Below, in pieces: positions 5,666 through 29,262 of a stretch of 64,000 nucleotides of DNA (positions are counted from its first letter, which is position 1; each line of letters begins with the position of its first letter). The translations under genes and the position numbers were made by a program. The stretch comes from a phage: assembly GCA_019897865.1 (NCBI GenBank), contig GCA_019897865.1_4532.1; one strand, written 5' to 3'. The notes beneath the pieces are model-generated. The model did not search any database. It had not been told where the DNA came from and was given only the letters and a program-made list of their open reading frames with translations.

Positions 5666-6012
5666 AGATTATCAAAATAACTAGCGAATAAAAGACGGCC
5701 CTCTAACCGTGCCTTCCTTTGATCTTCAGCATACACGATTTCTGGATTACCACTATCAATAAAAGCATTCTCCATCTTTTCTAAAATATTTAACCACTCT
5801 CTTCTACCTGTCTCCTCTTCTTCATCTGTATACGGCGCACTTCTATTTGGATACAAAACACGCATCAGTTTAGTGGGGATCATGACAAACGTGCTATTGT
5901 TTGCCTTCTCGCGGAAGGCTTTAATTCCTGCATAGATTACCTTCCCCAAAGCTGCATCCAAATCCATCAGGTCACTTTCTTCTATTTGAATTTCATCGTG
6001 TACAATTTTCAT
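5656..6012 (-). CDS. hypothetical protein
   Basis: 118-aa ORF. Confidence 0.5.
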   Translation of the reverse strand: MKIVHDEIQIEESDLMDLDAALGKVIYAGIKAFREKANNSTFVMIPTKLMRVLYPNRSAPYTDEEEETGRREWLNILEKMENAFIDSGNPEIVYAEDQRKARLEGRLLFASYFDNLWS

Positions 6013-6296
6013 CGTGCCTTCTCCCGATCTGCGTCCAATTTCAACAAGAAGGTTGCATACTCTTCTGAGCCTTGATGCAAGAACATACGATAAGAACTTA
6101 CCAGTTTCTTGGTCGTTGTATAACGTTCCATTTCCCCAACAACACCTCCACCCAGGGTGTAGAGCACAACACCCTCAAACCCAACATGAGTTACTACTTC
6201 AACCAAGTCTGTGTTATCCCAATGGTAGTTAGGTGACACAATAAGATCGCCAACTGCCAGTTTAATGTTTGCTACTTCATTTTGTGAATAATACAT
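6009..6296 (-). CDS. hypothetical protein
   Basis: 95-aa ORF overlapping neighbour by 4 nt. Confidence 0.5.
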   Translation of the reverse strand: MYYSQNEVANIKLAVGDLIVSPNYHWDNTDLVEVVTHVGFEGVVLYTLGGGVVGEMERYTTTKKLVSSYRMFLHQGSEEYATFLLKLDADREKAR

Positions 6297-6308
6297 TTGG
6301 TTCTCCTC

Positions 6309-6602
6309 TCACATTAAGACACGTTTTGTATCGATGGGTGCATTATCAAACATGTTAAGAACATTGTCAAGCAGTTTTACTAATTCATTTGTAATTTGTT
6401 CTTTTGAACGGGAGGAAGTGAGCACTTTGCTTTCACCAACGATATGCATAACTTTTATAGGAGCATCTAAAATAATGTTGTGCTGACGATCCTCTTCAAA
6501 AGAAGCCAACCATTTCTCGTTGTTACCGTGTAAGGCTACAATGACACCAAAACCGTTAATTGTCTCAGAAATATTCTTAGTTGCTAAAGTAATGTTCATC
6601 AT
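6309..6602 (-). CDS. hypothetical protein (first gene of leftward operon)
   Basis: 97-aa ORF; tandem ATG ATG preceded by GAGGT. Confidence 0.5.
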   Translation of the reverse strand: MMNITLATKNISETINGFGVIVALHGNNEKWLASFEEDRQHNIILDAPIKVMHIVGESKVLTSSRSKEQITNELVKLLDNVLNMFDNAPIDTKRVLM

Positions 6603-15649: not shown

Positions 15650-17464
15650 ATGAAAGATTTGTACCAAGATGTTTTTTCTTTTTTAGATCGCACTTCAGAA
15701 ACATACACTAGAGAGAATGCAAACAAACCTTCCCACCTCGTTAACACGCATAGGGATCTCTTGGCGGGGATTTTAAGCAAACATATGGCAATGACACAGA
15801 TACTGCCAAAAAACTTGTCAGAATGGCATACAGAAGGTTTTGGACATATTCACGATTTGGATTATCTACTCTCTCCTCTTACAAACTGTTGTCTTGTTAA
15901 TTATCAAGATATGTTAGAGAATGGTTTTAAGATCGGAGCCGCACAAATAGAAAAACCAAAATCTATTGGGGTAGCTACTACAGTGCTAACTCAAATCATT
16001 CAAGCTGTTGCCTCCAGTCAGTATGGAGGTCAGACGTGTGCGCACATTGATAAAGGTCTTAGTCCTTATGTTGAAGCTAGTTTCCTTAAAAACATGGAGA
16101 TAACTAAACGTCGCTACGGTTGTTATGCAAGGAAAGAAGCCCTAGAAATGACCGAACAAGATGTATATGATGCTATGCAAACTCTCTTGTATCAGGTTAA
16201 TACTTTAATGAGTGTAAATGGACAATCTCCTTTTATTACAATTAGTATGGGTCTGGATACCTCTGTTTTTGGCAGAATGATCACAGCTAACTATCTTAAA
16301 GTGCATAGTAATGGTCTAGGCAAAGATCATGTAACACCTGTATTTCCTAAAGTTATTTTCTTTTTACAAGAAGGTGTTAACATGAAACCTAGTGATCCTA
16401 ATTATGACCTTAAGCAACAAGCTTTGGCATGTTGTGCTGATCGCATTTATCCAGATTTTATTTCTGTTCCTTTGAACAAAGAAGTTACGGGATCAGCAGA
16501 TGGTACTGTTACGAGTATGGGTTGTCGTTCCTTTTTGTCGTACTATGCCACCGAACAAGGAGAAAAATATGATGGACGATTCAACCTTGGAGTAGTTTCT
16601 ATCAACTTGCCTCTGATTGCTGCGGAAGCGAGAAGTAAAGGAGAATCTTTCACCGACCTCCTTAATAAACATATGGAGATAGCCTACGATGCTCACATGT
16701 TACGTGTAAACCGTATTAAACATACCAAAGCATCTGAAAACCCTATTCTTTTCATGGAAGGGGCTTTAGCGCGTTTAAATGCCAACGATGAAATTGGTGT
16801 TTTGTTTGAAGATGGTTATGCTTCTATTAGTATTGGTTATGTAGGTCTTGCTGAAGCTTTGGAAATCCTTTATCCAGAAGAAAAAGATAAAAAGGAGCTA
16901 GGTAAAAACATTCTGCAACATATGAAAGATGTGTGTGCTGTGTTTAAAGAGCGATCTAAGCTGGCATTTAGTCTCTATGGAACTCCAGCAGAATCTTTGT
17001 GCTATAAGTTTGCAACAGCTTTAAATGAAAAATATCCAGGTCTGGTAGAAAGAGATTATCTTACTAACTCTTTTCATCAACCTGTATGGTTGGTAACAAA
17101 TCCTTTTGAAAAATGGGATTATGAAGCAGGTTTTGCACAGATTAGTAATGGTGGTAACATAAGTTATGTCGAAACACCAAACTTAAAGAATAACTTAGAA
17201 GCTTTGGAGACTTTAGTAGACTACGCTTATGAACATATTCACTATTTTGGTATTAATCAGCCCGTGGATCAATGCTTTAAGTGTGGTTTTCATGGAGAAT
17301 TTAAGGCAACGGCTAAAGGGTTTGAGTGCCCTGATTGTGGCAACCATGAAGAAGAAACTATTTCTGTAGTTAGACGTGTATCAGGGTATCTTTCTGCTCC
17401 TAATTCACGGCCTTATAACAAAGGTAAAATGCAGGAAGTTTTGCAAAGGGAGAAACATCTTTGA
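15650..17464 (+). CDS. nrdD: anaerobic ribonucleoside-triphosphate reductase (class III)
   Basis: 604 aa; C-terminal Zn ribbon CFKCGFHGEF...CPDCG and glycyl-radical motif RRVSGYL. Confidence 0.85.
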   Translation: MKDLYQDVFSFLDRTSETYTRENANKPSHLVNTHRDLLAGILSKHMAMTQILPKNLSEWHTEGFGHIHDLDYLLSPLTNCCLVNYQDMLENGFKIGAAQIEKPKSIGVATTVLTQIIQAVASSQYGGQTCAHIDKGLSPYVEASFLKNMEITKRRYGCYARKEALEMTEQDVYDAMQTLLYQVNTLMSVNGQSPFITISMGLDTSVFGRMITANYLKVHSNGLGKDHVTPVFPKVIFFLQEGVNMKPSDPNYDLKQQALACCADRIYPDFISVPLNKEVTGSADGTVTSMGCRSFLSYYATEQGEKYDGRFNLGVVSINLPLIAAEARSKGESFTDLLNKHMEIAYDAHMLRVNRIKHTKASENPILFMEGALARLNANDEIGVLFEDGYASISIGYVGLAEALEILYPEEKDKKELGKNILQHMKDVCAVFKERSKLAFSLYGTPAESLCYKFATALNEKYPGLVERDYLTNSFHQPVWLVTNPFEKWDYEAGFAQISNGGNISYVETPNLKNNLEALETLVDYAYEHIHYFGINQPVDQCFKCGFHGEFKATAKGFECPDCGNHEEETISVVRRVSGYLSAPNSRPYNKGKMQEVLQREKHL

Positions 17465-17931
17465 ATTTTGCAGGATATGAACCTGTAGATCTTATTAATG
17501 GTGAGGGAGTTAGGTGCTCCCTCTGGGTTAGTGGTTGTAGCCACGGTTGTCGTGGCTGTTTTAACCAAAAAGCCTGGTCTTATTCTTATGGGAAACCGTT
17601 TACTGACGAAAATGTAGAGCAAGTTTTAAAAGATTTGTCAAGACCATTTGTAAAAGGTTTAACAGTTTTAGGAGGAGAACCATTAGATCCGCAGAATATT
17701 CACAATGTTAAAAGCCTTATAGAAAAGGTTAGAGACGTTTATGGGTCAAGCAAAGATATAATGGTGTATACAGGATATACTTTTGAGGAAGTGCCTTTGT
17801 ATATTAAAAATCTTGTTGACATTATTGTAGACGGAAAGTACGAAATAAACAATCCAACTACAAAACCTTTCAGAGGGTCAGATAATCAAAGATTATGGAC
17901 CAAAACGGCAAGTGGTTGGCAATCAGATTAA
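17461..17931 (+). CDS. nrdG: anaerobic ribonucleotide reductase activating protein (radical SAM)
   Basis: 156 aa; CSHGCRGC radical-SAM cluster motif; TTG start overlapping nrdD stop. Confidence 0.8.
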   Translation: MNFAGYEPVDLINGEGVRCSLWVSGCSHGCRGCFNQKAWSYSYGKPFTDENVEQVLKDLSRPFVKGLTVLGGEPLDPQNIHNVKSLIEKVRDVYGSSKDIMVYTGYTFEEVPLYIKNLVDIIVDGKYEINNPTTKPFRGSDNQRLWTKTASGWQSD

Positions 17932-18758: not shown

Positions 18759-19415
18759 ATGACAATAAAACATATCTCTTTTGATGTATGGAACACTCTT
18801 ATTTCTGCCAATCAAAACTATGCAGATGCACGTACGCACACTATTGCGACATATGGTAGAATGTCTGAACGTGCCGCAAAAGAAGCATATAAAGATGCCA
18901 AAGAAATTATGGATAATGCTGCACTAAATGGGTGTGCAGAAGGTGTAGCATATGCATGGAATATGTTGGGAAGAAAAATAGGTTTAACCCCTGTAGAATC
19001 TGCACAAATGCGTTTTGAGTGTGAACAATGGTTTCTTAAATTTCCTCCACATATTGCTTTAGATTTGCCAGTTTGTTTGCTATACTTGTCTGGTAAATAT
19101 GATCTTAGTATTAAAAGCAATACTAATTTTATATCTGGGGATATTTTGCGTCGTGCTTGTATGTTCGATAGTTGGAATTGTTTTGAATTTATGCATTTTT
19201 CAGACGAACATCTGTTGTGTAAACCAGATCCTAGATTCTTTGTTAGGACCGCCACATATTCAAGCATTCCTTTGAAGGCTGAAGAGATTTTACATGTTGG
19301 GGACAGCGAAGAATTTGATGGTAAATGTGTTGACATAGGGATTAACTTCTGTCATATTAAGAACCCTAACGACTTACTAGAGAAACTTAAAAGAGGAGAA
19401 ATTGTAAATGCGTAA
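18759..19415 (+). CDS. HAD-superfamily hydrolase
   Basis: Motif I ISFDVWNTL, motif III CKPDPRFF, motif IV HVGDSEEFD. Confidence 0.6.
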   Translation: MTIKHISFDVWNTLISANQNYADARTHTIATYGRMSERAAKEAYKDAKEIMDNAALNGCAEGVAYAWNMLGRKIGLTPVESAQMRFECEQWFLKFPPHIALDLPVCLLYLSGKYDLSIKSNTNFISGDILRRACMFDSWNCFEFMHFSDEHLLCKPDPRFFVRTATYSSIPLKAEEILHVGDSEEFDGKCVDIGINFCHIKNPNDLLEKLKRGEIVNA

Positions 19416-20235
19416 TCAAATTCAAATTTTTGCAAATAAATTTGATGACCTGGAAACTGCTACTTTTGATATTAAAGATTATTCAAAATTGAAATTTGGT
19501 AGTAACCAGGCTGCGCGTCGTATGGGTAAAGAATTGGCACTTCAGTTTTTTGCTCAAGTGGCAATGAAACATATTGGGGAACAATTTGTTATCATCCCTT
19601 CTCCTTATAACCATGTGCATAATGCTGCAACAATGATGACAGATCATTTTATTAATTACTTTAATATGTTGCAAGCACAATATGATCAAGGTCGTTCAGC
19701 AGAACTGGATATTATTCATCGTAAAGTTAGCTATATCAACGATTATGGTTTCTTGGATAAAGCTAGTCGTAAGAAACTTATTGATGGGGATACATTCTAC
19801 TGCAACAAAGAATTCTGGGGTGATAAGAAGCTTGTGTTCATTGATGATGTAAATATCACCGGAACTCATGAAGACAAACTGATTGAGATCCTTGATGAAA
19901 ATCAAGTTAAAAATGATGTTTACTTCTTGTATTTTGCAAAATATGAAGGTAATCAAGCAGATACCGAAGCTAAACTGAATTTTAATTATATTAATACACC
20001 AGAAGCGTTTGTTAAAATGATTAATGAAGAACGTGATGCACAGTGCCTTGTTCGTCCTATTAAGTATCTTATGGGCCAAAATCACGAAGACTTCAAAATC
20101 ATTCTTAGCCAATTGCCACACTACTATGTAGAGCAACTTTTCTTTGGATGTTTGGGAGAAGGTTACAACCGAATTTCAAAGTATGCTGAAAACTTTGAAT
20201 TCTTGGATCGTTACACAAAACAACATGTTCTGTAA
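19408..20235 (+). CDS. type I phosphoribosyltransferase (PRTase)-like protein
   Basis: 275 aa; PRPP-binding-like motif KLVFIDDVNITGTH. Confidence 0.6.
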   Translation: MRNQIQIFANKFDDLETATFDIKDYSKLKFGSNQAARRMGKELALQFFAQVAMKHIGEQFVIIPSPYNHVHNAATMMTDHFINYFNMLQAQYDQGRSAELDIIHRKVSYINDYGFLDKASRKKLIDGDTFYCNKEFWGDKKLVFIDDVNITGTHEDKLIEILDENQVKNDVYFLYFAKYEGNQADTEAKLNFNYINTPEAFVKMINEERDAQCLVRPIKYLMGQNHEDFKIILSQLPHYYVEQLFFGCLGEGYNRISKYAENFEFLDRYTKQHVL

Positions 20236-20248
20236 TAAGGAGCTAAAA

Positions 20249-20722
20249 ATGCTTAAAATGAAAACAGGTAATCTTATTGATGCCGCTAAAGCAGGCGAAG
20301 TAACTGTTATTGCTCATTGTTGCAATTGTATGTGTAATATGGGAGCAGGAATTGCTCCGCAAATTAAACGAGCATTCCCTTATGCATATGCGGCAGATTT
20401 AGACACAATGGCTGGTGATCAAAGTAAGTTAGGTTCTTTTAGTTTAGGGGTGCCAGACGAACAATCGGACCCTTTGGTATATAATCTATACGGACAATAC
20501 CGTTACGGATACAATGCTAAAGGTCGTCAGTTGGACTATGATGCACTTTACGATGCACTAATAGCTATGGCTAATGATTTGCTTCTCCGTGACCAAAAAT
20601 GTAAGATCGGCTTACCTATGATTGGCGCTGGATATGCTGGAGGTAATTGGGCTATCATCCAAGTGATGATTGAAGAAACTTTAGTAAAAACAGGTCACGA
20701 TGTGACTATTTATAAACTTTAA
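20249..20722 (+). CDS. macro-domain protein (ADP-ribose binding/hydrolysing)
   Basis: Track ORF 20144..20722; ATG at 20249 preceded by AAGGAG; VTVIAHCCNCMCNMGAGIAPQI macro signature. Confidence 0.6.
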   Translation: MLKMKTGNLIDAAKAGEVTVIAHCCNCMCNMGAGIAPQIKRAFPYAYAADLDTMAGDQSKLGSFSLGVPDEQSDPLVYNLYGQYRYGYNAKGRQLDYDALYDALIAMANDLLLRDQKCKIGLPMIGAGYAGGNWAIIQVMIEETLVKTGHDVTIYKL

Positions 20723-20734
20723 GAGGAGATTAGT

Positions 20735-20956
20735 ATGGGTGTTTTTGCAGGTATTGTTGCAGTGGTAAGCTTTTTTGTTATTGCTTTTATGCTTAGTTTG
20801 ATTCCAGCTTGGTTACTGTTGCTGGCTTACAACTATGTTGCTGAAGTTATGGGTCATGCAGATATCACTGTCCCAGTAACCTTCTGGACCGTGGTTTGTG
20901 TTTCGTTTATTCTGGCGGTATTACGAGGAATCTTTTCCTCTCATTCAACAAAATAA
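20735..20956 (+). CDS. small integral membrane protein
   Basis: 73 aa, two hydrophobic helices, AGAGGAG RBS. Confidence 0.5.
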   Translation: MGVFAGIVAVVSFFVIAFMLSLIPAWLLLLAYNYVAEVMGHADITVPVTFWTVVCVSFILAVLRGIFSSHSTK

Positions 20957-20959
20957 GTG

Positions 20960-20987
20960 TTGACATAGTTCTTAAAAAGAGTAAGAT
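20960..20987 (+). promoter_or_regulatory. sigma70-like promoter TTGACA-N16-TAAGAT upstream of TerC
   Basis: -35 at 20960-20965, -10 at 20982-20987; followed by 8-bp stem-loop gcggggaa/ttccccgc at 21000-21018 in the 5' UTR. Confidence 0.5.
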
Positions 20988-21035
20988 ATATCACATGAAG
21001 CGGGGAATAGTTCCCCGCAAAGAGAGGAGAAAAGA

Positions 21036-22010
21036 ATGCAACTCGGTTTCCCAATTATTGATGTAGTTGTTTTAGTTGGTATTTTGGCATTGTCTATTGG
21101 TATCGATTTCTTTGGTCATAAAGAGAATAAAGAAATTGGAATTAAATCTGCTTTGCTTTGGTCTGTTTTTTGGATTGCTTTAGCTTTAGGATATTACGCA
21201 TTCATTTGGGTAGAGCATGGTAAAGAGTTTGCCGCACTTTTCCTAAGTGGATATGTGTTGGAAAAGAGTCTTTCTGTTGATAACCTAATGGTGTTCATGG
21301 CAATTTTTGCAAGCTTTGGAATTAAGAGCACACATCTCCAACATAAGATTTTACTTTGGGGGATTGCAGGAGCCATTGTCTTCCGAGGTATTTTTGTTGC
21401 AGCAGGGACCGCTTTGTTTAACCTTCATTGGTCGGTCCAAGTGTTGTTCGGTTTGATTGTAGCTTGGTCTGCCGTGGCTATCATCAAAGGTGGTGACGAA
21501 GAAGAGGATATTGATTACTCTAAGCATTGGGCTGTTCGTTTAGTAGGTAAAGTTCTGCCTGTGCACAATGCACTGGATGGTGAAAAGTTCATCACCATTA
21601 AGAATGGTATTAAATATGCAACTCCTGCTCTTCTTTGTGTGTTTGTTATTGAGCTTACAGATATTGTCTTCTCTTTTGATTCAGTTCCGGCTGTGATCGG
21701 TGTGACACAAGAACCTCTGCTAGTTTATTCTGCAATGCTGATGGCTGTTCTTGGTTTACGTGCACTTTTCTTTGTGTTAAGTGTAGCTGTGAAATATCTG
21801 GTTCACTTAGAGAAAGCTGTTGCTGTGGTTCTGGTGTTTGTTGGTGCTAAACTTATGTATCACCCGTTCGGTGAAACACTTCATGCCAAGTGGTCATTCC
21901 TCCCGCATGATATTTCCCCTAACGTAAGTCTGATGATTGTTCTAGGCACATTAGCTCTTGGTGTTATTGCAAGCTTTATCTTCCCTGAAAAAGAAGAAGC
22001 TGCTGTTTAA
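21036..22010 (+). CDS. TerC-family integral membrane protein
   Basis: 324 aa, multi-pass hydrophobic; TerC-type motifs including LEKSLSVDNL. Confidence 0.7.
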   Translation: MQLGFPIIDVVVLVGILALSIGIDFFGHKENKEIGIKSALLWSVFWIALALGYYAFIWVEHGKEFAALFLSGYVLEKSLSVDNLMVFMAIFASFGIKSTHLQHKILLWGIAGAIVFRGIFVAAGTALFNLHWSVQVLFGLIVAWSAVAIIKGGDEEEDIDYSKHWAVRLVGKVLPVHNALDGEKFITIKNGIKYATPALLCVFVIELTDIVFSFDSVPAVIGVTQEPLLVYSAMLMAVLGLRALFFVLSVAVKYLVHLEKAVAVVLVFVGAKLMYHPFGETLHAKWSFLPHDISPNVSLMIVLGTLALGVIASFIFPEKEEAAV

Positions 22011-22016
22011 TAGATG

Positions 22017-22041
22017 AGCCTCCTTCGGGAGGCTATTTTAT
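22017..22041 (+). terminator. Rho-independent terminator
   Basis: agcctcc ttcg ggaggct hairpin (UUCG tetraloop) followed by ATTTTAT. Confidence 0.7.
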
Positions 22042-22052
22042 AGGAGAGACTT

Positions 22053-22403
22053 ATGAATAATTTTGATGAAATTCAAGAACTTGTTTGGGATTTATCTGGT
22101 GATGTGGATTACGTTTTAGATTATCTTTCAAAAGTTTACCCTGGGGTAAGCGTTATGATCGTGACCAAAGATCCAATTAATTTGCCTCCTAATGTGGTAG
22201 CTTGTTGTGGGAGTGGTTCAGGGGCAGTGGAGCCTGTATCCCGTTGGGAATTAACTAAAGCTGTTTCAAAACGAAACGGTGAAGTTTTGAATATTGATAT
22301 CGAGCAAATATGGACTTCTCCAGCAGCTAAATGGAATGATCCGAATGGTTGGGACTTGTTCTTCTGGGATAATGAAACTGATGATGAGGTATTTTTAAAA
22401 TGA
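22053..22403 (+). CDS. hypothetical protein
   Basis: 116-aa ORF with AGGAGAG RBS. Confidence 0.5.
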   Translation: MNNFDEIQELVWDLSGDVDYVLDYLSKVYPGVSVMIVTKDPINLPPNVVACCGSGSGAVEPVSRWELTKAVSKRNGEVLNIDIEQIWTSPAAKWNDPNGWDLFFWDNETDDEVFLK

Positions 22404-22645
22404 AATACTTGTTGGTTGTGTTTGAAAATATTTGTTTTGCAATAGGGTTGTTTGTTGTAATTTTTGTATTGACAAGCGTAATCAACGGCAGTAAAGTGAG
22501 TTTATACCGAGATGGAGAGCAACTTTATTGCTTCTCTGGAGATTTCAAACACAGATGTATTAATAGCCAAAACGAGGAAAGCAAATATGAAAAAACTAGC
22601 CCTGATTTTAATTGGTTGTATCTTTTTAACAGCTTGCGAGGATGA
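22400..22645 (+). CDS. putative small membrane protein (overlaps lipoprotein gene; extent uncertain)
   Basis: 81-aa ORF with hydrophobic N-terminus; 3' end overlaps 22587..23024 by 59 nt. Confidence 0.3.
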   Translation: MKYLLVVFENICFAIGLFVVIFVLTSVINGSKVSLYRDGEQLYCFSGDFKHRCINSQNEESKYEKTSPDFNWLYLFNSLRG

Positions 22646-23024
22646 AACAAATCCTGCACAATACCAACAACCTCCTCAACAATACGCTCAACAAGGATCT
22701 GAAGGAGATACAACTATTATCAACAATGGTGGCGGTTCTAGTAGTAGCGGTGTTGGTGAGTTTGCTACAGGTATGTTGTTAGGGCATATGATGAGTGGCG
22801 GTAGTAATCGTAGCAGTGGGGATTATAACGATAACAGAACGATTATTAATAAGCATTATAATACACCTAAACCGAAAACTAATTTTTATGGTAAGCCTAA
22901 ACAAGAGATAAAAACTTATGAAAAGCCGAGACAAACTTTTAAAACAAATAGTAGCTATACAACTCGTAAATCTTACAATAGCCCTTTAAGTAAAAAGAGT
23001 TCATCTCGTAGCAAGCGACGTTAA
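22587..23024 (+). CDS. lipoprotein (signal peptidase II lipobox), Gly/Ser/Asn-rich
   Basis: MKKLALILIGCIFLTAC with L-T-A-C lipobox; track ORF 22512..23024 has internal ATG at 22587. Confidence 0.6.
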   Translation: MKKLALILIGCIFLTACEDETNPAQYQQPPQQYAQQGSEGDTTIINNGGGSSSSGVGEFATGMLLGHMMSGGSNRSSGDYNDNRTIINKHYNTPKPKTNFYGKPKQEIKTYEKPRQTFKTNSSYTTRKSYNSPLSKKSSSRSKRR

Positions 23025-23038
23025 TAAGGAGAAAAACA

Positions 23039-23632
23039 ATGACAATTTCTATTCGTACTTCCATTGTAGGTGTTAAAAGGTTGCCTAATGCTTTGCAAAT
23101 CACACGCGCTTTGAGGGATACATTCTCTGCTGTGGACGAGCATAAGATGCTTGATAATCTTTCAAATTGGCCCTATTTCCATTATTTTAAAAATGAAGAT
23201 GACGAGTTTATAGACGCTGTTTCTTATGGTTATGATTTCGGTAAGGAGGTTTCTGCTGAAGAATTTGTAGCTATGGTGTTCCCAAACGGTTTGCCTACTC
23301 GCAGTAAACGTAAAAAAGGACCAAAAAACAAGAAACGTGCTACTAATAAAGCTACCATTTTCTTTACTGATGGCACACAATATACGATTAAAGATTTTGA
23401 AGAGGTATCTTATACAGCAGGTGGGAATCTTTCTTTCTACACCATCAAAAAACAAAACTCTACGTTCAGCCATGTTTCTAACATGATTGAAATGTTAGTA
23501 GAAGATATTGAAAGCGTAGCTGTGTTAGGTATGCATAAAAGCTTTTTAATTACAAATATTTCAGATTTCAGTGCACGTTTATCTGGCCCTGATTTTGAAG
23601 CCACGACCACGCATTTCACTTTTAAGGTGTAA
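23039..23632 (+). CDS. hypothetical protein
   Basis: 197-aa ORF. Confidence 0.5.
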   Translation: MTISIRTSIVGVKRLPNALQITRALRDTFSAVDEHKMLDNLSNWPYFHYFKNEDDEFIDAVSYGYDFGKEVSAEEFVAMVFPNGLPTRSKRKKGPKNKKRATNKATIFFTDGTQYTIKDFEEVSYTAGGNLSFYTIKKQNSTFSHVSNMIEMLVEDIESVAVLGMHKSFLITNISDFSARLSGPDFEATTTHFTFKV

Positions 23633-23635
23633 GTT

Positions 23636-24226
23636 ATGTATACCGAGAGAGACTTGCAACTCTTGTGGTGGGAAGTGATGCAGGAAATAAAAGAAGATTT
23701 TCCTGTTTACTACAACATGTTACGTGAAGCAGGATATAAAGCTTGCGTTAGAAACAAAGTGAATAACTCTTTCGGTTGGTGCAACTACCGAGATAAAATT
23801 GTTGTTGTAAATTGGCACTTGCATAAGAACTCTACAAGAGATATGATCGTGGATACAATGAAGCACGAAATTGCTCATGCTATTGATGGTTGTATGGGTA
23901 AGTTTAGTCGGCACGGTGCTCATTGGCAAAAACTGGCAGCAGAATTAGGGGCAAACCCTAAAGCTACTTCCAAAGAGCCGTTGAACCATGAATATAAATA
24001 TGTTCTTGTTTTGGTGGATAGGTTTGCGACAAGATGTGTTAGAGGGTATAATCGTAAACCTAATCGCATGTATCCAGGTAAGCAACCTAATATGTGGTTA
24101 AAATCAGATAAAGAAGGAACAGAAGGAAAATTATGGTTGTATAAATGGGACGATTGGGTTAAAGTAGCTAAAGAATACGGTGTTTCACCATATATAAGAG
24201 ATGCAGAAGAGGAGAATGAAGAATGA
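23636..24226 (+). CDS. SprT-like zinc metalloprotease-domain protein
   Basis: 196 aa; HExxH motif in MKHEIAHAIDG. Confidence 0.45.
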   Translation: MYTERDLQLLWWEVMQEIKEDFPVYYNMLREAGYKACVRNKVNNSFGWCNYRDKIVVVNWHLHKNSTRDMIVDTMKHEIAHAIDGCMGKFSRHGAHWQKLAAELGANPKATSKEPLNHEYKYVLVLVDRFATRCVRGYNRKPNRMYPGKQPNMWLKSDKEGTEGKLWLYKWDDWVKVAKEYGVSPYIRDAEEENEE

Positions 24227-25335
24227 CAAGTCCGTTTTTAAAAGCAGCTACTGGTGGTCAGAAGAAGTCTGAAATGAGTGTATTCACTGCAACAACAGAT
24301 GCAAGTAAATCTGTATTTGCTCCAACCGTGTTAGATGCCAGTCCTGTTTATGCACCAGCCGCACCGCAAGAAGTCCCAGTTTTGCCTTCTATGACACGAC
24401 AAGAGATCGAAGAGATCGGGGCAGAGGCAGGAACAACCTTGCGTTCCTTGAATGCCGAGGTATTAAAACATCAACGTAGTAATCAAGGCGATCAGATGAG
24501 TGAACGACTCACAGCTTTGATTAAACAGGCAAAACAACTTGATCCAAACTCTATTAAACAAAGCAAAGGTATTACTAAACTCATTAAAAAAGTTATGGGT
24601 ATGAAAGAAGACCTGTTTGGGGAGTTTGATAATGTTAATAACCGTATTGAAGAGTTGGTAAAGAACCTTCAAATGGATATTCGCAAAGAAGAAGATTCCT
24701 TGGTATATCTTGAAAAGCTACATCAAGCTATTGGACAATATGCTGCAAGTTTGAACCGAGATATGCAGCTTCTAACAGCAACCTATGAAAAAGAAGAACA
24801 AGCTTTGGCTGCTCTTCCAAAAGATGCGGTAGAACAGCGACAAGCGATCCGAGATACCTTGGATCTTCTGGAGATTCGTATTGCGGATTTAAAAGCATTG
24901 CGCCTACTGTGTGTCCAAATGGGACCACGTGTGCAAGGTATGCAAAAAGTTTCTGCAAGCTTAATGCGATCTGCGCGTAACATAGTAAATAATGTTATTC
25001 CTGCTTACTCTGCTAACTTCTCAATGTATATTGAGAGCTTACGTCAAATGAAAGCCGCAGAGACACAGAATAACGTTCTTGATGAATTTAACCTGGCAAT
25101 TAAACTGGGTAGCGATCTTGCCACACAGAATCAGATCGAAGCAGCAGCACTGGCTAACCGTCAAGTGTTGGATATTGAAACTCTGCGTCACGATCAGGAA
25201 AACTTGGTCAAAATGTTGGAAGAAACTAACCGCATCAATACGGAAGCCCGTGCTGCCCGTGTTGATTACATCAATGAAGTTCAATCTCTCGAAGATGGGA
25301 TGGTTGACGCTGTTAAGAAGGGGTTGGGTAAATGA
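24223..25335 (+). CDS. TelA-like (toxic anion resistance) helical protein
   Basis: 370 aa, Ala/Pro-rich N-terminus then long helical region; size and context fit TelA/KlaA family. Confidence 0.4.
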   Translation: MTSPFLKAATGGQKKSEMSVFTATTDASKSVFAPTVLDASPVYAPAAPQEVPVLPSMTRQEIEEIGAEAGTTLRSLNAEVLKHQRSNQGDQMSERLTALIKQAKQLDPNSIKQSKGITKLIKKVMGMKEDLFGEFDNVNNRIEELVKNLQMDIRKEEDSLVYLEKLHQAIGQYAASLNRDMQLLTATYEKEEQALAALPKDAVEQRQAIRDTLDLLEIRIADLKALRLLCVQMGPRVQGMQKVSASLMRSARNIVNNVIPAYSANFSMYIESLRQMKAAETQNNVLDEFNLAIKLGSDLATQNQIEAAALANRQVLDIETLRHDQENLVKMLEETNRINTEARAARVDYINEVQSLEDGMVDAVKKGLGK

Positions 25336-25538
25336 GAATCCGTGTATACATGCTTGACGAACAAGCTGGAGAAATAGGTGTTCGTTATGACGAAGAGAAA
25401 CGCTTTGCCCCAATGACCCAGCTACAAACTCCAGATATTTTTGCAGCTTGTCGTGATGGATATATCTATGAAGGTTGTCGTAACTTTGGTAGATTTAAAG
25501 TTATTTCTGATGTGGACTTTAATGAGGAAGAAGAATGA
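25332..25538 (+). CDS. hypothetical small protein
   Basis: 68-aa ORF. Confidence 0.45.
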   Translation: MRIRVYMLDEQAGEIGVRYDEEKRFAPMTQLQTPDIFAACRDGYIYEGCRNFGRFKVISDVDFNEEEE

Positions 25539-25708
25539 AAACTTTACGAGTGAATATTGAAACTGCTTGGTGTGGATGCAATGAGGTTGTGGATATCGAA
25601 ATTGAAGATGATATGTCTCAAGAGGATATAGAAGATCTTGCACACGAAACCTTTCAGGACTATTGTAGCTATGGGTTTCATATTTTAGAGGAGAAAGAAG
25701 ATGCATAA
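25535..25708 (+). CDS. hypothetical small acidic protein (57 aa), not in ORF track
   Basis: ATG at 25535 after GAGGAAG; MKTLRVNIETAWCGCNEVVDIEIEDD... Confidence 0.4.
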   Translation: MKTLRVNIETAWCGCNEVVDIEIEDDMSQEDIEDLAHETFQDYCSYGFHILEEKEDA

Positions 25709-25898
25709 TCCAAAACCTGATACCATTACGTTGACTCGACAGGAACTGATCACAATCATTGAAGATGCTTTTATTGATGGTTGGAATACACAAGATAATG
25801 ATTGGGGTGGACCTGAAGCTTTTCTAGAACATCATAAAGCGTATGGAGAATTTTGTGAAACCACTGTAGCTCTTGATAATCTGAAGGAGGGTTTGTAA
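25701..25898 (+). CDS. hypothetical small protein
   Basis: 65-aa ORF. Confidence 0.45.
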   Translation: MHNPKPDTITLTRQELITIIEDAFIDGWNTQDNDWGGPEAFLEHHKAYGEFCETTVALDNLKEGL

Positions 25899-26461
25899 TG
25901 GGTTGTTTTAGCTTTTTGTGTAAGGAATCGGGCAAAGCTGCCCTTTCTACTTCTTTCGACGGATCACCTTGCTATCTCTTTCTTTTGAAGGATGGTGTTG
26001 TTATTGAAGAGATGTATGGCAACTATGATAGTTATGGTTGTGTTTTCTCTGGAAAGGAGGATGAAAATGGCGTTCGTGAACGGTTCGAATGGGCTATGGA
26101 TTGGGGTAAGGTTTGTGATTTAATGCATTCCTCGAATCCAAGGGACGGTATCGCTATGGTGCTGGAAGAGTATTTTACAGGTGAAATCCCTACAGAACAA
26201 TCTGACGGAGATCCTAACCAAGGTTGGGGTGATGGCGAAGAAGATCCAGATTGTTTTTTCAGCACAGAAAAGAATAAGTTTAAACGTGTTGACAACCCTT
26301 ATCACAAAGTGCATAATACTCTCATTGAAACAGAAGATGACAAGATGGAAATTGAAGAAGATGATCCTCTTGTAACACTTCCTATAAGTGAGTTACAAAA
26401 GATCACTAAGGAAGCTTACGATTTGGGCTTCAAAATTGGTAGAGGAGGTATGCGTGTTTAG
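25898..26461 (+). CDS. hypothetical acidic protein
   Basis: 187-aa ORF. Confidence 0.5.
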   Translation: MGCFSFLCKESGKAALSTSFDGSPCYLFLLKDGVVIEEMYGNYDSYGCVFSGKEDENGVRERFEWAMDWGKVCDLMHSSNPRDGIAMVLEEYFTGEIPTEQSDGDPNQGWGDGEEDPDCFFSTEKNKFKRVDNPYHKVHNTLIETEDDKMEIEEDDPLVTLPISELQKITKEAYDLGFKIGRGGMRV

Positions 26462-26732
26462 ATTCAATATTCAAGAAGAAAAGTGTCAGGATTTACCTAT
26501 TGCTTTCGAAGATCTTGGCATAGGGGACACATTCATGTATTATGATGCCTATGAAGACGCAGGGTTGGATACCTACCGTAACTTGGTGTTCATTAAAAAT
26601 TCCACAAACAGTGCGATCTGTATTAATGGATCACTAGCACAACGAGGCTATACTCATTGCATCCCACCAGATACAAATATGGTGGAAGTAGATTTAGAAG
26701 TTACCAATATTACACTTAAGAAGGAGAAATAA
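26454..26732 (+). CDS. small protein, paralog A of duplicated module
   Basis: GTG start 6 nt after AGGAGG; about 40 percent identical to 27754..28023 product (shared DLxxGDTFxY..A.E..GLD and EV.L.VT.ITLK). Confidence 0.5.
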   Translation: MFRFNIQEEKCQDLPIAFEDLGIGDTFMYYDAYEDAGLDTYRNLVFIKNSTNSAICINGSLAQRGYTHCIPPDTNMVEVDLEVTNITLKKEK

Positions 26733-26733
26733 T

Positions 26734-27528
26734 ATGTCCGAGAAAATCAGCCTGAAAAAACGTCAAGAAAACCTTGCTTTCTCTCTGAAAAAGAATAAGA
26801 ACCTGAACGAAGGTAAGATTGTTCTTCGTGTAGCATGTGCTCTAGATATTTCTGGTAGTATGCATGGTCTATATACTCGTGGGGTAGTGAGTGATTTTGT
26901 AGGTAAACTGCTTCCTTTTGGTATGCTGTTCGACGATAATGAACAAATTGACATGTGGGCCTTCAATACGAGTTCTCAAGAGCTTACTCCAGCAACAGCA
27001 GACGTTTACGATGACTACGTTGGTAAATGTATGCGTAATGTTCGTATCGGAGGTGGAACAAATTACGCCCCTGTAATGGCAGATATCTACGATGAGTATT
27101 TTGGCACTGTTACCAAATATGTTACCACTAAACAAGTGGTACAAGAGGAGGCTCCAAAGAAAGGCTTCTTTAATCGTCTGCTTGGTAAAACTGAAACAGT
27201 GTCTGTAGAGCGTGAAAAAGTTGTAGCTGTATCTGAACCAGGTGCTGACGTTACCCCTGGTGTTGTATTCTTCCAGACGGATGGTGAGAATGGTGATCCT
27301 AGTGCTGTTCGTCGTCTTATTGAAGAGAATAAGAATAAACCTATTTATTGGTTCATGGTTGGCGTTGGTAATGAGAAGTTTGGCTTCCTGAAAGAACTGG
27401 CAAATGCTTATGATAATGTTGGTTTTATTGGCATTAAAGATTTAGACTTGACAGATTCAGAGCTTTATGACAAACTCTTATCTGAAGAGTTCGGAGAGTG
27501 GGTTGTTAAAGTAGGTGCTAAAAAATGA
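26734..27528 (+). CDS. vWA-domain protein (TerF/TerY-like) with TerD-like N-terminal KISLKK motif
   Basis: 264 aa; MIDAS-like DISGSM; N-terminus MSEKISLKK mirrors TerD N-terminus. Confidence 0.55.
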   Translation: MSEKISLKKRQENLAFSLKKNKNLNEGKIVLRVACALDISGSMHGLYTRGVVSDFVGKLLPFGMLFDDNEQIDMWAFNTSSQELTPATADVYDDYVGKCMRNVRIGGGTNYAPVMADIYDEYFGTVTKYVTTKQVVQEEAPKKGFFNRLLGKTETVSVEREKVVAVSEPGADVTPGVVFFQTDGENGDPSAVRRLIEENKNKPIYWFMVGVGNEKFGFLKELANAYDNVGFIGIKDLDLTDSELYDKLLSEEFGEWVVKVGAKK

Positions 27529-27773
27529 TCGACGAGCTTGCCTCTCAAGTCATAGAAAATTATTGGCGCGAGAGAGAAGCTTTCATTATGCGCAGTCTCA
27601 AAGAGTATTTCATTGGGACTGTGCGAATGGAAGATATTGTAAGTAGAGTAGAGATTCATGTATGGCCTGATTATGAAGAATGGGTTGACAAAGAAAATGA
27701 AAATGCTATAATTCTTCGTATATACAAACCGGAGATAACATTAGGAGGAAGAAGTGTTAAACTTCGAAATTGA
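27525..27773 (+). CDS. hypothetical small protein
   Basis: 82-aa ORF. Confidence 0.4.
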   Translation: MIDELASQVIENYWREREAFIMRSLKEYFIGTVRMEDIVSRVEIHVWPDYEEWVDKENENAIILRIYKPEITLGGRSVKLRN

Positions 27774-28023
27774 TGAGCAAAAAGTAAATAAACGATGCCT
27801 TACCATTAAAGATTTGGATGTAGGAGATACTTTCGTCTATGAAAATGCATTTGACGAAAATGGTTTAGACCTTAGTGAAATCATTGTTTATTTAAAAGTA
27901 GATGATGGGGAAAATGATTATTCTGCTGTAGAACTAAACCATCATGCACAATTAGTATCAATCCAAAACACATCTAAGCTTTTGGAAGTAGAATTGACTG
28001 TAACTGGTATTACACTTAAATAA
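27754..28023 (+). CDS. small protein, paralog B of duplicated module
   Basis: GTG start after AGGAGG; paralog of 26454..26732. Confidence 0.5.
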   Translation: MLNFEIDEQKVNKRCLTIKDLDVGDTFVYENAFDENGLDLSEIIVYLKVDDGENDYSAVELNHHAQLVSIQNTSKLLEVELTVTGITLK

Positions 28024-28038
28024 TAGAGGAGACAAAAG

Positions 28039-28641
28039 ATGACTGATAAAATTTCCCTGAAAAAAGGCTCTAGCGAAAAAATTTCCCTGAAGAAAGTTGC
28101 TCCGGCTCTGAAAGAACTGCGCCTGGAATTCTCTTGGAAATCTGATTCTAAACTAGATCTGGATGTAAGTGCACTGGTTTGTCGTCATAATGCCGCTGGC
28201 AATCCTGAAATGCTGTCCGCACGTCATCTGGTTTGCTATGCTAATAAGTTTGATCCTGAACGTTCTACCTTCGCTGGTGACGATGTTCGTGATGGAACTG
28301 GCAGCATGGAGCAGATTGATATTACTCTGGCTAAAATCTCTCCTGATGCACAAGAGATTGCCTTTGTTCTGACTATTGATGATGATACAGGTCTGAAACG
28401 TTTTGGTCATGCTTCTGAAGGTATGCTTAAAATCTTCGACTCCGAGCGTAATGTGGAAATTCTGGATTTTGACTTCCTGGCTCCTGAAGTAGCTGGCAAC
28501 ACAATCTGCCACGTGGCTTCCCTGGTTCGTGAAGATGGAGAATGGAAGCTGAAAGCATATGGTGTAGGTAAAGCTGGTCTGGATATTTGCGATGTGGTGA
28601 TGGCCTTCGGTGGTAAAAAAGAATGGTATGAATGTCCATAA
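28039..28641 (+). CDS. terD: TerD-family protein
   Basis: 200 aa; ISLKKG...ISLKK, LDLDVSAL, GDDVRDGTG, GEWKLKAYGVGKAGL match the TerD fold signature. Confidence 0.8.
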   Translation: MTDKISLKKGSSEKISLKKVAPALKELRLEFSWKSDSKLDLDVSALVCRHNAAGNPEMLSARHLVCYANKFDPERSTFAGDDVRDGTGSMEQIDITLAKISPDAQEIAFVLTIDDDTGLKRFGHASEGMLKIFDSERNVEILDFDFLAPEVAGNTICHVASLVREDGEWKLKAYGVGKAGLDICDVVMAFGGKKEWYECP

Positions 28642-28659
28642 TAATTAACAAATGATTTT

Positions 28660-28679
28660 GAGGGGGAGAAATCCCCCTC
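28660..28679 (+). terminator. GC-rich hairpin after terD (weak U-tract)
   Basis: gaggggga gaaa tccccctc perfect 8-bp stem; only TT follows. Confidence 0.45.
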
Positions 28680-28740: not shown

Positions 28741-29262
28741 TTGCTGATAAAAAACTTTGTAACAGTTGCGTTACTATCCTTAACTGCTTTTACATTTACA
28801 CCTGTTGTGGCGAAAGCCGAAGCTGCAAACGTAAAAACCGCTAAAGTAGTTCACAAATGTACAAAGCAATATAATGATAAAATTCTATTAGCTTGTGCAA
28901 TTTACGCAGAAGGTCGCGGTCTGGGTAAAAAAGGAATGAATGCCGTTGGGAATGTGGTAATCAACAGAAGAAATGATGCCTACTTCCCTAACACAGTCAA
29001 GGGAGTCTTGTTCCAGAAAGGGCAATTCTCATATGCGAAAACTTTTAACGTGACAGAGAAAGATAAGTGGCAGGAAGCAAAAGCAATAGCGGAGCGTTTA
29101 CTTTATTTAGAGAAACATTTTCCTGAATTGCGGTCTGTTTTAGATGTTACTAAAGGTGCTCTATACTTCAAGAAACGGAATATAAGGACACACTGGGAGC
29201 GTGATATGCGTCTTGTTTATCGAGATAAAGTGCATGGTTTCTATCTACCAAAGGGGAGTTAA
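28741..29262 (+). CDS. SleB/CwlJ-like cell-wall hydrolase with signal peptide
   Basis: TTG start 6 nt after AAAGGAGG; signal peptide MLIKNFVTVALLSLTAFTFTPVVAKA; LLACAIYAEGRG...VGNVVINRR...GQF motifs. Confidence 0.6.
   Translation: MLIKNFVTVALLSLTAFTFTPVVAKAEAANVKTAKVVHKCTKQYNDKILLACAIYAEGRGLGKKGMNAVGNVVINRRNDAYFPNTVKGVLFQKGQFSYAKTFNVTEKDKWQEAKAIAERLLYLEKHFPELRSVLDVTKGALYFKKRNIRTHWERDMRLVYRDKVHGFYLPKGS

Follow-up and report, generated by a model that had tools for sequence, protein, structure and literature searches.

An unannotated small-protein family, duplicated beside the TerF-type vWA and TerD genes of a Phapecoctavirus Ter cluster

Why would a phage carry two related small genes, one just upstream of a TerF-type vWA gene and the other just upstream of terD, when the products of both larger genes begin with the same KISLKK motif? 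The question is raised by a 64,000-nucleotide (nt) stretch of phage DNA (GenBank assembly GCA_019897865.1, contig GCA_019897865.1_4532.1; hereafter the window), for which a preliminary description made from the sequence alone had proposed that a two-gene module underwent an ancient tandem duplication and that TerD and vWA domains were then swapped. The answer that we favor, and consider likely as a whole, is that only the small gene was duplicated, within a phage Ter cluster, and that its product has an accessory role there. The 6 kb around the small genes is 98.6% identical at the DNA level to Escherichia phage AV126 and 97 to 98% identical to many further Phapecoctavirus (phAPEC8-like) genomes. 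The window is a Phapecoctavirus, a phAPEC8-like Escherichia coli myophage with a phage-borne Ter cluster, and the small genes lie in the 3' end of that cluster, as follows:

26454-26732, + strand: small protein A, 92 amino acids (aa), GTG start, upstream of the vWA gene; predicted SH3-like small β-barrel
26734-27528, + strand: TerF-type vWA protein, 264 aa (PF10138)
27525-27773, + strand: 82-aa open reading frame (ORF), here orf82; phrog_22387, E = 8e-58
27754-28023, + strand: small protein B, 89 aa, GTG start, immediately upstream of TerD
28039-28641, + strand: TerD protein, 200 aa (PF02342)

Two paralogous small genes

Small A and small B align over their full length with 33% identity and 54% positives (BLASTP, E = 1e-14). 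Their Smith-Waterman score of 124 compares with 25.7 ± 4.6 (maximum, 48) in 2,000 shuffles (z = 21.5), and the paralogy asserted in the preliminary description thus withstood the shuffled controls. Both proteins match the hidden Markov model (HMM) of phrog_11278 (small A, 1-92 of 92, E = 1.6e-49; small B, 1-89 of 92, E = 7e-45), and both genes are annotated as coding sequences in phage ESCO13. Each gene starts with a GTG behind an AGGAGG, as had been noticed at the outset, and the distance is 6 nt. The homologues in other phages start at the equivalent position, often with ATG, which supports the choice of start codon.

The non-ATG starts in the window, and the lack of any family for these proteins in Pfam and NCBIfam, might suggest that the small ORFs are untranslated, being either spurious frames or regulatory leaders of the genes downstream. 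We find this hardly credible. The Shine-Dalgarno sequences are strong and ideally spaced, relatives have ATG at the homologous position, and the frame is intact, with F4, G24, F27, and G37 invariant among family members of merely 22 to 40% overall identity; this residue conservation holds across about 15 clusters at 50% identity. Small A shows a ratio of nonsynonymous to synonymous substitutions (dN/dS) of 0.16 to 0.28 relative to Justusliebigvirus and phiWec179, and a deep enough alignment yields a confident prediction of a compact fold. Small B is the faster evolving of the two (dN of 0.51 versus phiWec179, with dS saturated), and both small genes evolve much faster than those for TerD, vWA, and TelA (dN/dS, 0.04 to 0.16). 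We conclude from these comparisons that the small ORFs are real, conserved genes and genuine, old paralogs. Kinship of the small protein with TerD, the vWA protein, or orf82, as a fragment or otherwise, was rejected on hhalign probabilities below 1%.

Structure prediction with AlphaFold2 from eight close sequences was unreliable (predicted local distance difference test [pLDDT] of 68.7, with 34 to 42 for the other models) and was superseded by a run with 20 sequences, in which all five models agree (pLDDT, 83 to 86), with 85.7 for the predicted fold. The predicted structure is a five-stranded small barrel with a short helix. Its structural matches were SH3-like only, and the known small barrels with which it may be compared are those of FeoA, the C-terminal SH3-like domain of DtxR/IdeR, the C-terminal domain of ribosomal protein L2, KOW, Tudor, and HspQ. 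A Foldseek search of the PDB with the model returned nothing significant (best, FeoA-like, E = 0.23), and a sequence profile search of the PDB with the small proteins reached E = 0.27 at best. When the small A model was searched against BFVD, the top match was the small B orthologue of phAPEC8 (template modeling score, 0.82), and the other matches were unnamed small phage proteins. An SH3-like fold class is plausible on the basis of this model, with no specific family or function indicated.

A hairpin common to TerD and vWA-TerF-like proteins

The shared heads of the two larger proteins are equally real. Six-frame translation of the window contains KISLKK exactly three times, once at the N terminus of the vWA protein and twice at that of TerD, and the looser pattern [IVL][SDN]LxK-x5-9-[IVLF]xLxK is confined to the same two proteins. 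The vWA protein scores 130.7 bits against PF10138 (vWA-TerF-like; cutoff, 29.4). It begins with the hairpin KISLKKRQENLAFSLKK, encoded at 26743-26793, and carries a DxSxS motif of the metal ion-dependent adhesion site (MIDAS) type, ALDISGSM, whose residues D38, S40, and S42 do not vary among 18 homologues. We found no solved structure of any vWA-TerF-like protein. The TerD protein scores 98.9 bits against PF02342 (cutoff, 25.3), its residues 5-179 matching model positions 3-177, and aligns to the solved Klebsiella TerD structure 2KXT (E = 1.5e-15; query 5-183, chain 3-180) and to 3IBZ (E = 2.9e-14). The hairpin at its N terminus, KISLKKGSSEKISLKK (encoded at 28048-28095), falls within the Pfam TerD model; the segment ISLKKGSSEKISLKK aligns to 2KXT chain residues 3-15 (VSLSKGG-NVSLSK). 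The Ca2+-binding acidic motif of Klebsiella TerD, GDN(R/L)TGEGDGDDE, is conserved in part in the window TerD, where GDDVRDGTGSMEQ is aligned to GDNRTGEGDGDDE (sequence alignment only).

What the shared head means depends on how widely it occurs. Among 18 diverse vWA-TerF-like proteins, with identities as low as 38% and with one member from Neobacillus vireti, positions L7, K9, L18, and K20 never vary; the xSLxK...xSLxK hairpin as a feature of vWA-TerF-like proteins is derived from the present alignment and is not a published criterion. The hairpin also occupies the junction between TerD and the vWA core in bacterial TerD-vWA fusions (for example, 'KRLSLRKEQVAVSLRK' in a Streptomyces protein) and is present in bacterial standalone members. 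When the vWA-TerF-like and TerD profiles are compared, only the first 20 columns align (hhalign probability, 78%; E = 1.9e-5), and profile-profile comparison finds no similarity between the vWA and TerD proteins past residue 21. These alignments identify the KISLKK head with the N-terminal 'xSLxK ... xSLxK' hairpin common to the TerD and vWA-TerF-like families wherever they occur. Because it is family-wide in both families, KISLKK is uninformative on duplication within the phage. The similarity of the two N termini on which the preliminary description had built is therefore sound in itself, but it is not the record of a local duplication.

This bears directly on the proposed tandem duplication of an ancestral module, made up of a small gene and a terD-like gene with a KISLKK head, after which one TerD body would have been swapped for vWA. 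Such a history would account for the paralogy of the small genes, for the common hairpin at the start of both downstream proteins, and for the promoter-like site that each pair possesses. However, the hairpin precedes vWA everywhere, including in unrelated bacteria and in TerD-vWA fusions; the two proteins show no other similarity; and the additional orf82 breaks the supposed symmetry. The layout is not a clean 2 + 2, because this conserved ORF, which overlaps the vWA stop codon (ATGA) and, by 20 nt, the start of small B, separates the vWA gene from small B. The idea of a small gene plus a Ter gene, occurring twice, thus stands as far as gene order and a promoter-like site for each pair are concerned, but it had overlooked orf82. 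The gene orders of relatives bear on the proposal as well.

Gene order in relatives and the history of the small genes

Gene order was surveyed in 41 phage loci with a vWA-TerF-like gene (numbered L001 onward) and on the contigs of six distant members of the small family. The layouts are as follows:

small-vWA-orf82-small-TerD: Phapecoctavirus (the window, L001 [ESCO13], L003 [phiWec179], L005, L044, L045)
small-vWA-TerD: Justusliebigvirus (L002 [Justusliebigvirus alia], L008, L013) and Klebsiella phage 05F01 (L004)
vWA-small-TerD: L009, L042, L043, L048, L049, L050, and probably L051, whose short contig stops immediately 5' of the small gene
vWA-small-small-TerD: L046, L047
vWA-TerD with no small gene: L006, L010-L017, all more distant loci

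L013 is placed both with the small-vWA-TerD layout and within the range without a small gene (L010-L017). L007 likewise has no small gene, and its sequence stops before any TerD. The 82-aa ORF is present in L001, L003, L005, and L044, absent from L002 and L004, and restricted to Phapecoctavirus-type loci.

Because relatives show small-vWA-TerD, vWA-small-TerD, vWA-small-small-TerD, and vWA-TerD, copying or movement appears to have involved the small gene alone. Outside loci of the Stephanstirmvirinae type, the small gene sits between a complete vWA gene and TerD, and in all seven such contexts (the six distant relatives and L009) the family member is directly 5' of TerD. The sister genera hold the vWA-proximal copy only, and in one lineage two small genes are adjacent. 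This tandem pair, whose products have 90 aa and 87 aa, is found between vWA and TerD at 1180-1725 of L046 and 257-802 of L047, both metagenomic phage; because it is independent of the duplication in the window, the small family seems to duplicate repeatedly. We therefore regard the duplicated module with a domain swap as largely refuted already and as very improbable. A hidden, diverged small copy in the vWA loci that lack a small gene was sought by a relaxed HMM search, which found none; in L006 and L010, the ORFs listed at that place are unrelated genes.

The vWA-proximal copies group as a single clade in a neighbor-joining tree, in which the B copies of Phapecoctavirus make up a separate deep branch. 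We propose that vWA-small-TerD, the widespread layout, is probably ancestral and that duplication affected nothing but the small gene; the pair in L046 implies at least two independent events. A second copy, the derived small A, would have become fixed upstream of vWA in the Stephanstirmvirinae lineage, and both Justusliebigvirus and Klebsiella phage 05F01 would later have lost the TerD-proximal copy. In another reading, Phapecoctavirus may have acquired its TerD-proximal copy, together with orf82, by transfer. In this evolutionary and structural description, taken by itself, we have considerable confidence.

Two observations on related genomes may be added. In L002, a 200-aa ORF (5788-6390) that is absent from Phapecoctavirus lies between TerD and the endolysin; it has the length of TerD and no obvious sequence resemblance to it, although no formal comparison was run. 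The Stephanstirmvirinae region is also carried by records labeled as Campylobacter phage C3 (MG065656), Pseudomonas phage PsgM04F (OR584014), and Acinetobacter phage, among others, with 56 to 62% protein identity to small A; their host labels look doubtful for coliphage-type genomes.

How strictly is the small family tied to Ter genes? When 1.84 billion representative proteins were searched exhaustively with HMMER, the credible members were all standalone proteins of 87 to 93 aa, and no bacterial members were found. A search of IMG/VR with the alignment of the distant subgroup and a tblastn search of GenBank phages with P0096 both returned nothing. The HMMER list also contained giant repeat proteins (2,000 to 5,700 aa), which were rejected as homologues, the repeats being a mixture of He_PIG, DUF11, HYR, and even ankyrin types. 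On such proteins the 92-column profile reached E = 1e-26 by summing many weak matches; whole-sequence E values of small β-rich profiles need caution, because weak repeat matches add up. All 27 recovered instances of the small family (20 distinct sequences) adjoin vWA and/or TerD, and this adjacency spans vWA identities down to about 45 to 50%.

It could still be that the small proteins are unconnected with Ter, being ordinary fast-evolving early phage proteins placed where they are by descent and a chance local tandem duplication. The carriers are all related to one another and share the SleB-type endolysin gene downstream, the small genes change at a far higher rate than their Ter neighbors, close relatives keep vWA-TerD without them, and a generic SH3-like barrel is common in small phage proteins. 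Set against this are the exclusively standalone form of the credible members across so exhaustive a search, the presence of TerD and/or vWA next to every member whose context could be retrieved, even at the lowest vWA identities, and the recurrence in distant loci of a promoter-like site before the small gene and not directly before TerD. We judge this explanation unlikely, though it is by far the most serious of those considered.

Expression, possible role, and comparison with known Ter systems

The candidate signals for expression are as follows:

26289-26317, + strand: σ70-like promoter match, TTGACA-17-CATAAT, 11/12, within the 187-aa ORF and 137 nt upstream of small A
27685-27712, + strand: σ70 consensus promoter match, TTGACA-16-TATAAT with a TG extended -10, 12/12, inside orf82 and 42 nt upstream of small B
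28660-28679, + strand: GC-rich hairpin with an 8-bp stem and a GAAA loop, just past the TerD stop codon (-17.2 kcal/mol, z = -3.2 versus shuffles)

The site at 26289 recurs at the same distance in ESCO13, L005, L044, and Justusliebigvirus alia. In phiWec179, where the 187-aa ORF is missing, another 11/12 site is found 32 nt before small A. The site at 27685-27712 is the sole 12/12 match in the window (shuffles, 0.07 per strand), and both of its hexamers are kept in the divergent relatives L003, L005, and L044. Phages with the vWA-small-TerD layout have a 10-11/12 site about 58 nt before the small gene, and those without small B have a 10/12 site directly before TerD. The + strand of the window holds eight sites of at least 11/12 (9053, 26289, 27685, 32180, 35208, 43725, 52087, and 56537) where about 1.6 are expected; these are probably the phage's early promoters for the host polymerase. 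The hairpin past TerD has a poor U-tail and was not flagged by the terminator scan; it may be a terminator, marking the end of a transcription unit, or an RNA-stabilizing element. The gene junctions are tight, either overlapping or with a 1-nt gap, and the vWA start codon comes 1 nt past the small A stop. The consensus matches suggest two putative units, P-smallA-vWA(-orf82) and P-smallB-TerD.

Codon usage sets TerD apart from its surroundings: 17 of its 19 leucine codons are CTG, compared with 8 of 21 in vWA and 0 of 12 in small B. The genome is 39% GC, and the neighbors of TerD use CTG 0 to 2 times, the vWA gene being intermediate. Because GC at third codon positions is not raised, the bias looks like selection for host-preferred codons and high expression and not like recent transfer, and it suggests that TerD is highly expressed.

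The Pfam assignments place TerC, TelA, TerD, the TerF-type vWA protein, and a Ter-type PRTase on one strand at 19408-28641. The genes flanking those already listed are as follows:

19408-20235, + strand: PRTase_3, ComF-like (Pfam PF15610, E = 6.7e-42)
20144-20722, + strand: Macro-domain protein (Pfam; 'phosphatase' in the ESCO13 annotation)
21036-22010, + strand: TerC (Pfam)
23636-24226, + strand: SprT-like protein (Pfam)
24223-25335, + strand: TelA (Pfam)
25898-26461, + strand: 187-aa ORF
28741-29262, + strand: SleB-type endolysin

The ComF-like PRTase_3 and Macro-domain genes (19408-20722) lie directly upstream of TerC; therefore, the Ter cluster may have a predicted nucleotide-derivative signaling arm besides its membrane components. 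The SprT-like metallopeptidase gene is directly 5' of TelA and overlaps its start, a pairing seen again in the distant relatives L010-L015. Just upstream of the Ter block, at 15650-17931, are NrdD, an anaerobic ribonucleotide reductase (E = 1e-164), and a radical-SAM activase. The anti-phage defense models of PADLOC gave no match for any of the eight cluster proteins, and no TerB, TerA, or TerZ was seen in the examined part of the window.

We suggest that host σ70 would drive two transcription units, each with a small gene at its head, and that the small barrel would serve as a dispensable accessory or adaptor subunit, binding or modulating the Ter protein made with it. The phage Ter assembly of TerC, TelA, vWA, and TerD could in turn remodel the cell envelope and exclude competitors. 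We advance the partnership of the small protein with TerD or vWA only tentatively, as a possibility somewhat short of an even chance. Several points weigh against the picture as a whole. Adjacency could reflect descent and not function, because the carriers form one broad lineage in which the endolysin is equally syntenic. The small protein is evidently not needed for TerD and vWA as such, because L006 and L010-L017 keep vWA-TerD without it and with unchanged hairpins. The promoters are consensus matches only, and the order of duplication and loss is tentative, because the neighbor-joining tree is based on about 87 columns and has no bootstrap support.

A bolder version of the adaptor role would have small A dock onto the vWA hairpin and small B onto the TerD hairpin, or one copy onto both, as dedicated 'ISLKK' recognition subunits. 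We think this improbable; if true, TerD and vWA would be coupled into one phage-specific Ter assembly, with the conserved hairpin as a binding handle. Independently of such docking, a phage-only accessory family strictly beside TerD and TerF-type vWA is a concrete candidate partner, and the family-wide hairpin of TerD and vWA-TerF-like proteins suggests that the two families have an element in common, for structure or for interaction. By itself, neither lead changes the picture of Ter biology.

Ter systems are widely distributed, and resistance to tellurite and to colicins as well as inhibition of phages has been linked to them. Anantharaman, Iyer, and Aravind reportedly set out the bacterial Ter-dependent stress-response system, terZABCDEF/telA, in 2012. 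The bacterial TerF-type TerD-vWA fusions (e.g., Streptomyces P0065) have the same 'LSLRK...VSLRK' hairpin before vWA, with TerD in the same polypeptide, whereas here the genes are separate, vWA then TerD, with small genes interposed. In phages, Ter clusters with TerC, TelA, TerF-type vWA, and TerD are known from jumbo phages and from Klebsiella phage phiKp34, where they have been proposed to act in superinfection exclusion or in an envelope- or membrane-linked stress response (PMC7824862, PMC8386662). Compared with these phage and bacterial systems, the window contains the same families in one co-oriented block (PRTase_3, TerC, TelA, vWA-TerF-like, and TerD), with SprT-like and Macro-domain proteins present and with an interposed, duplicated SH3-like family of about 90 aa for which Pfam, NCBIfam, and PADLOC have no model. 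Both small proteins match phrog_11278 end to end, and that PHROG family is itself unannotated; the present analysis supplies its link to TerD and vWA, its predicted fold, and its history of duplication. A phage Ter cluster has thus been described before, and what the present locus adds to it is a previously unannotated accessory family, duplicated here.

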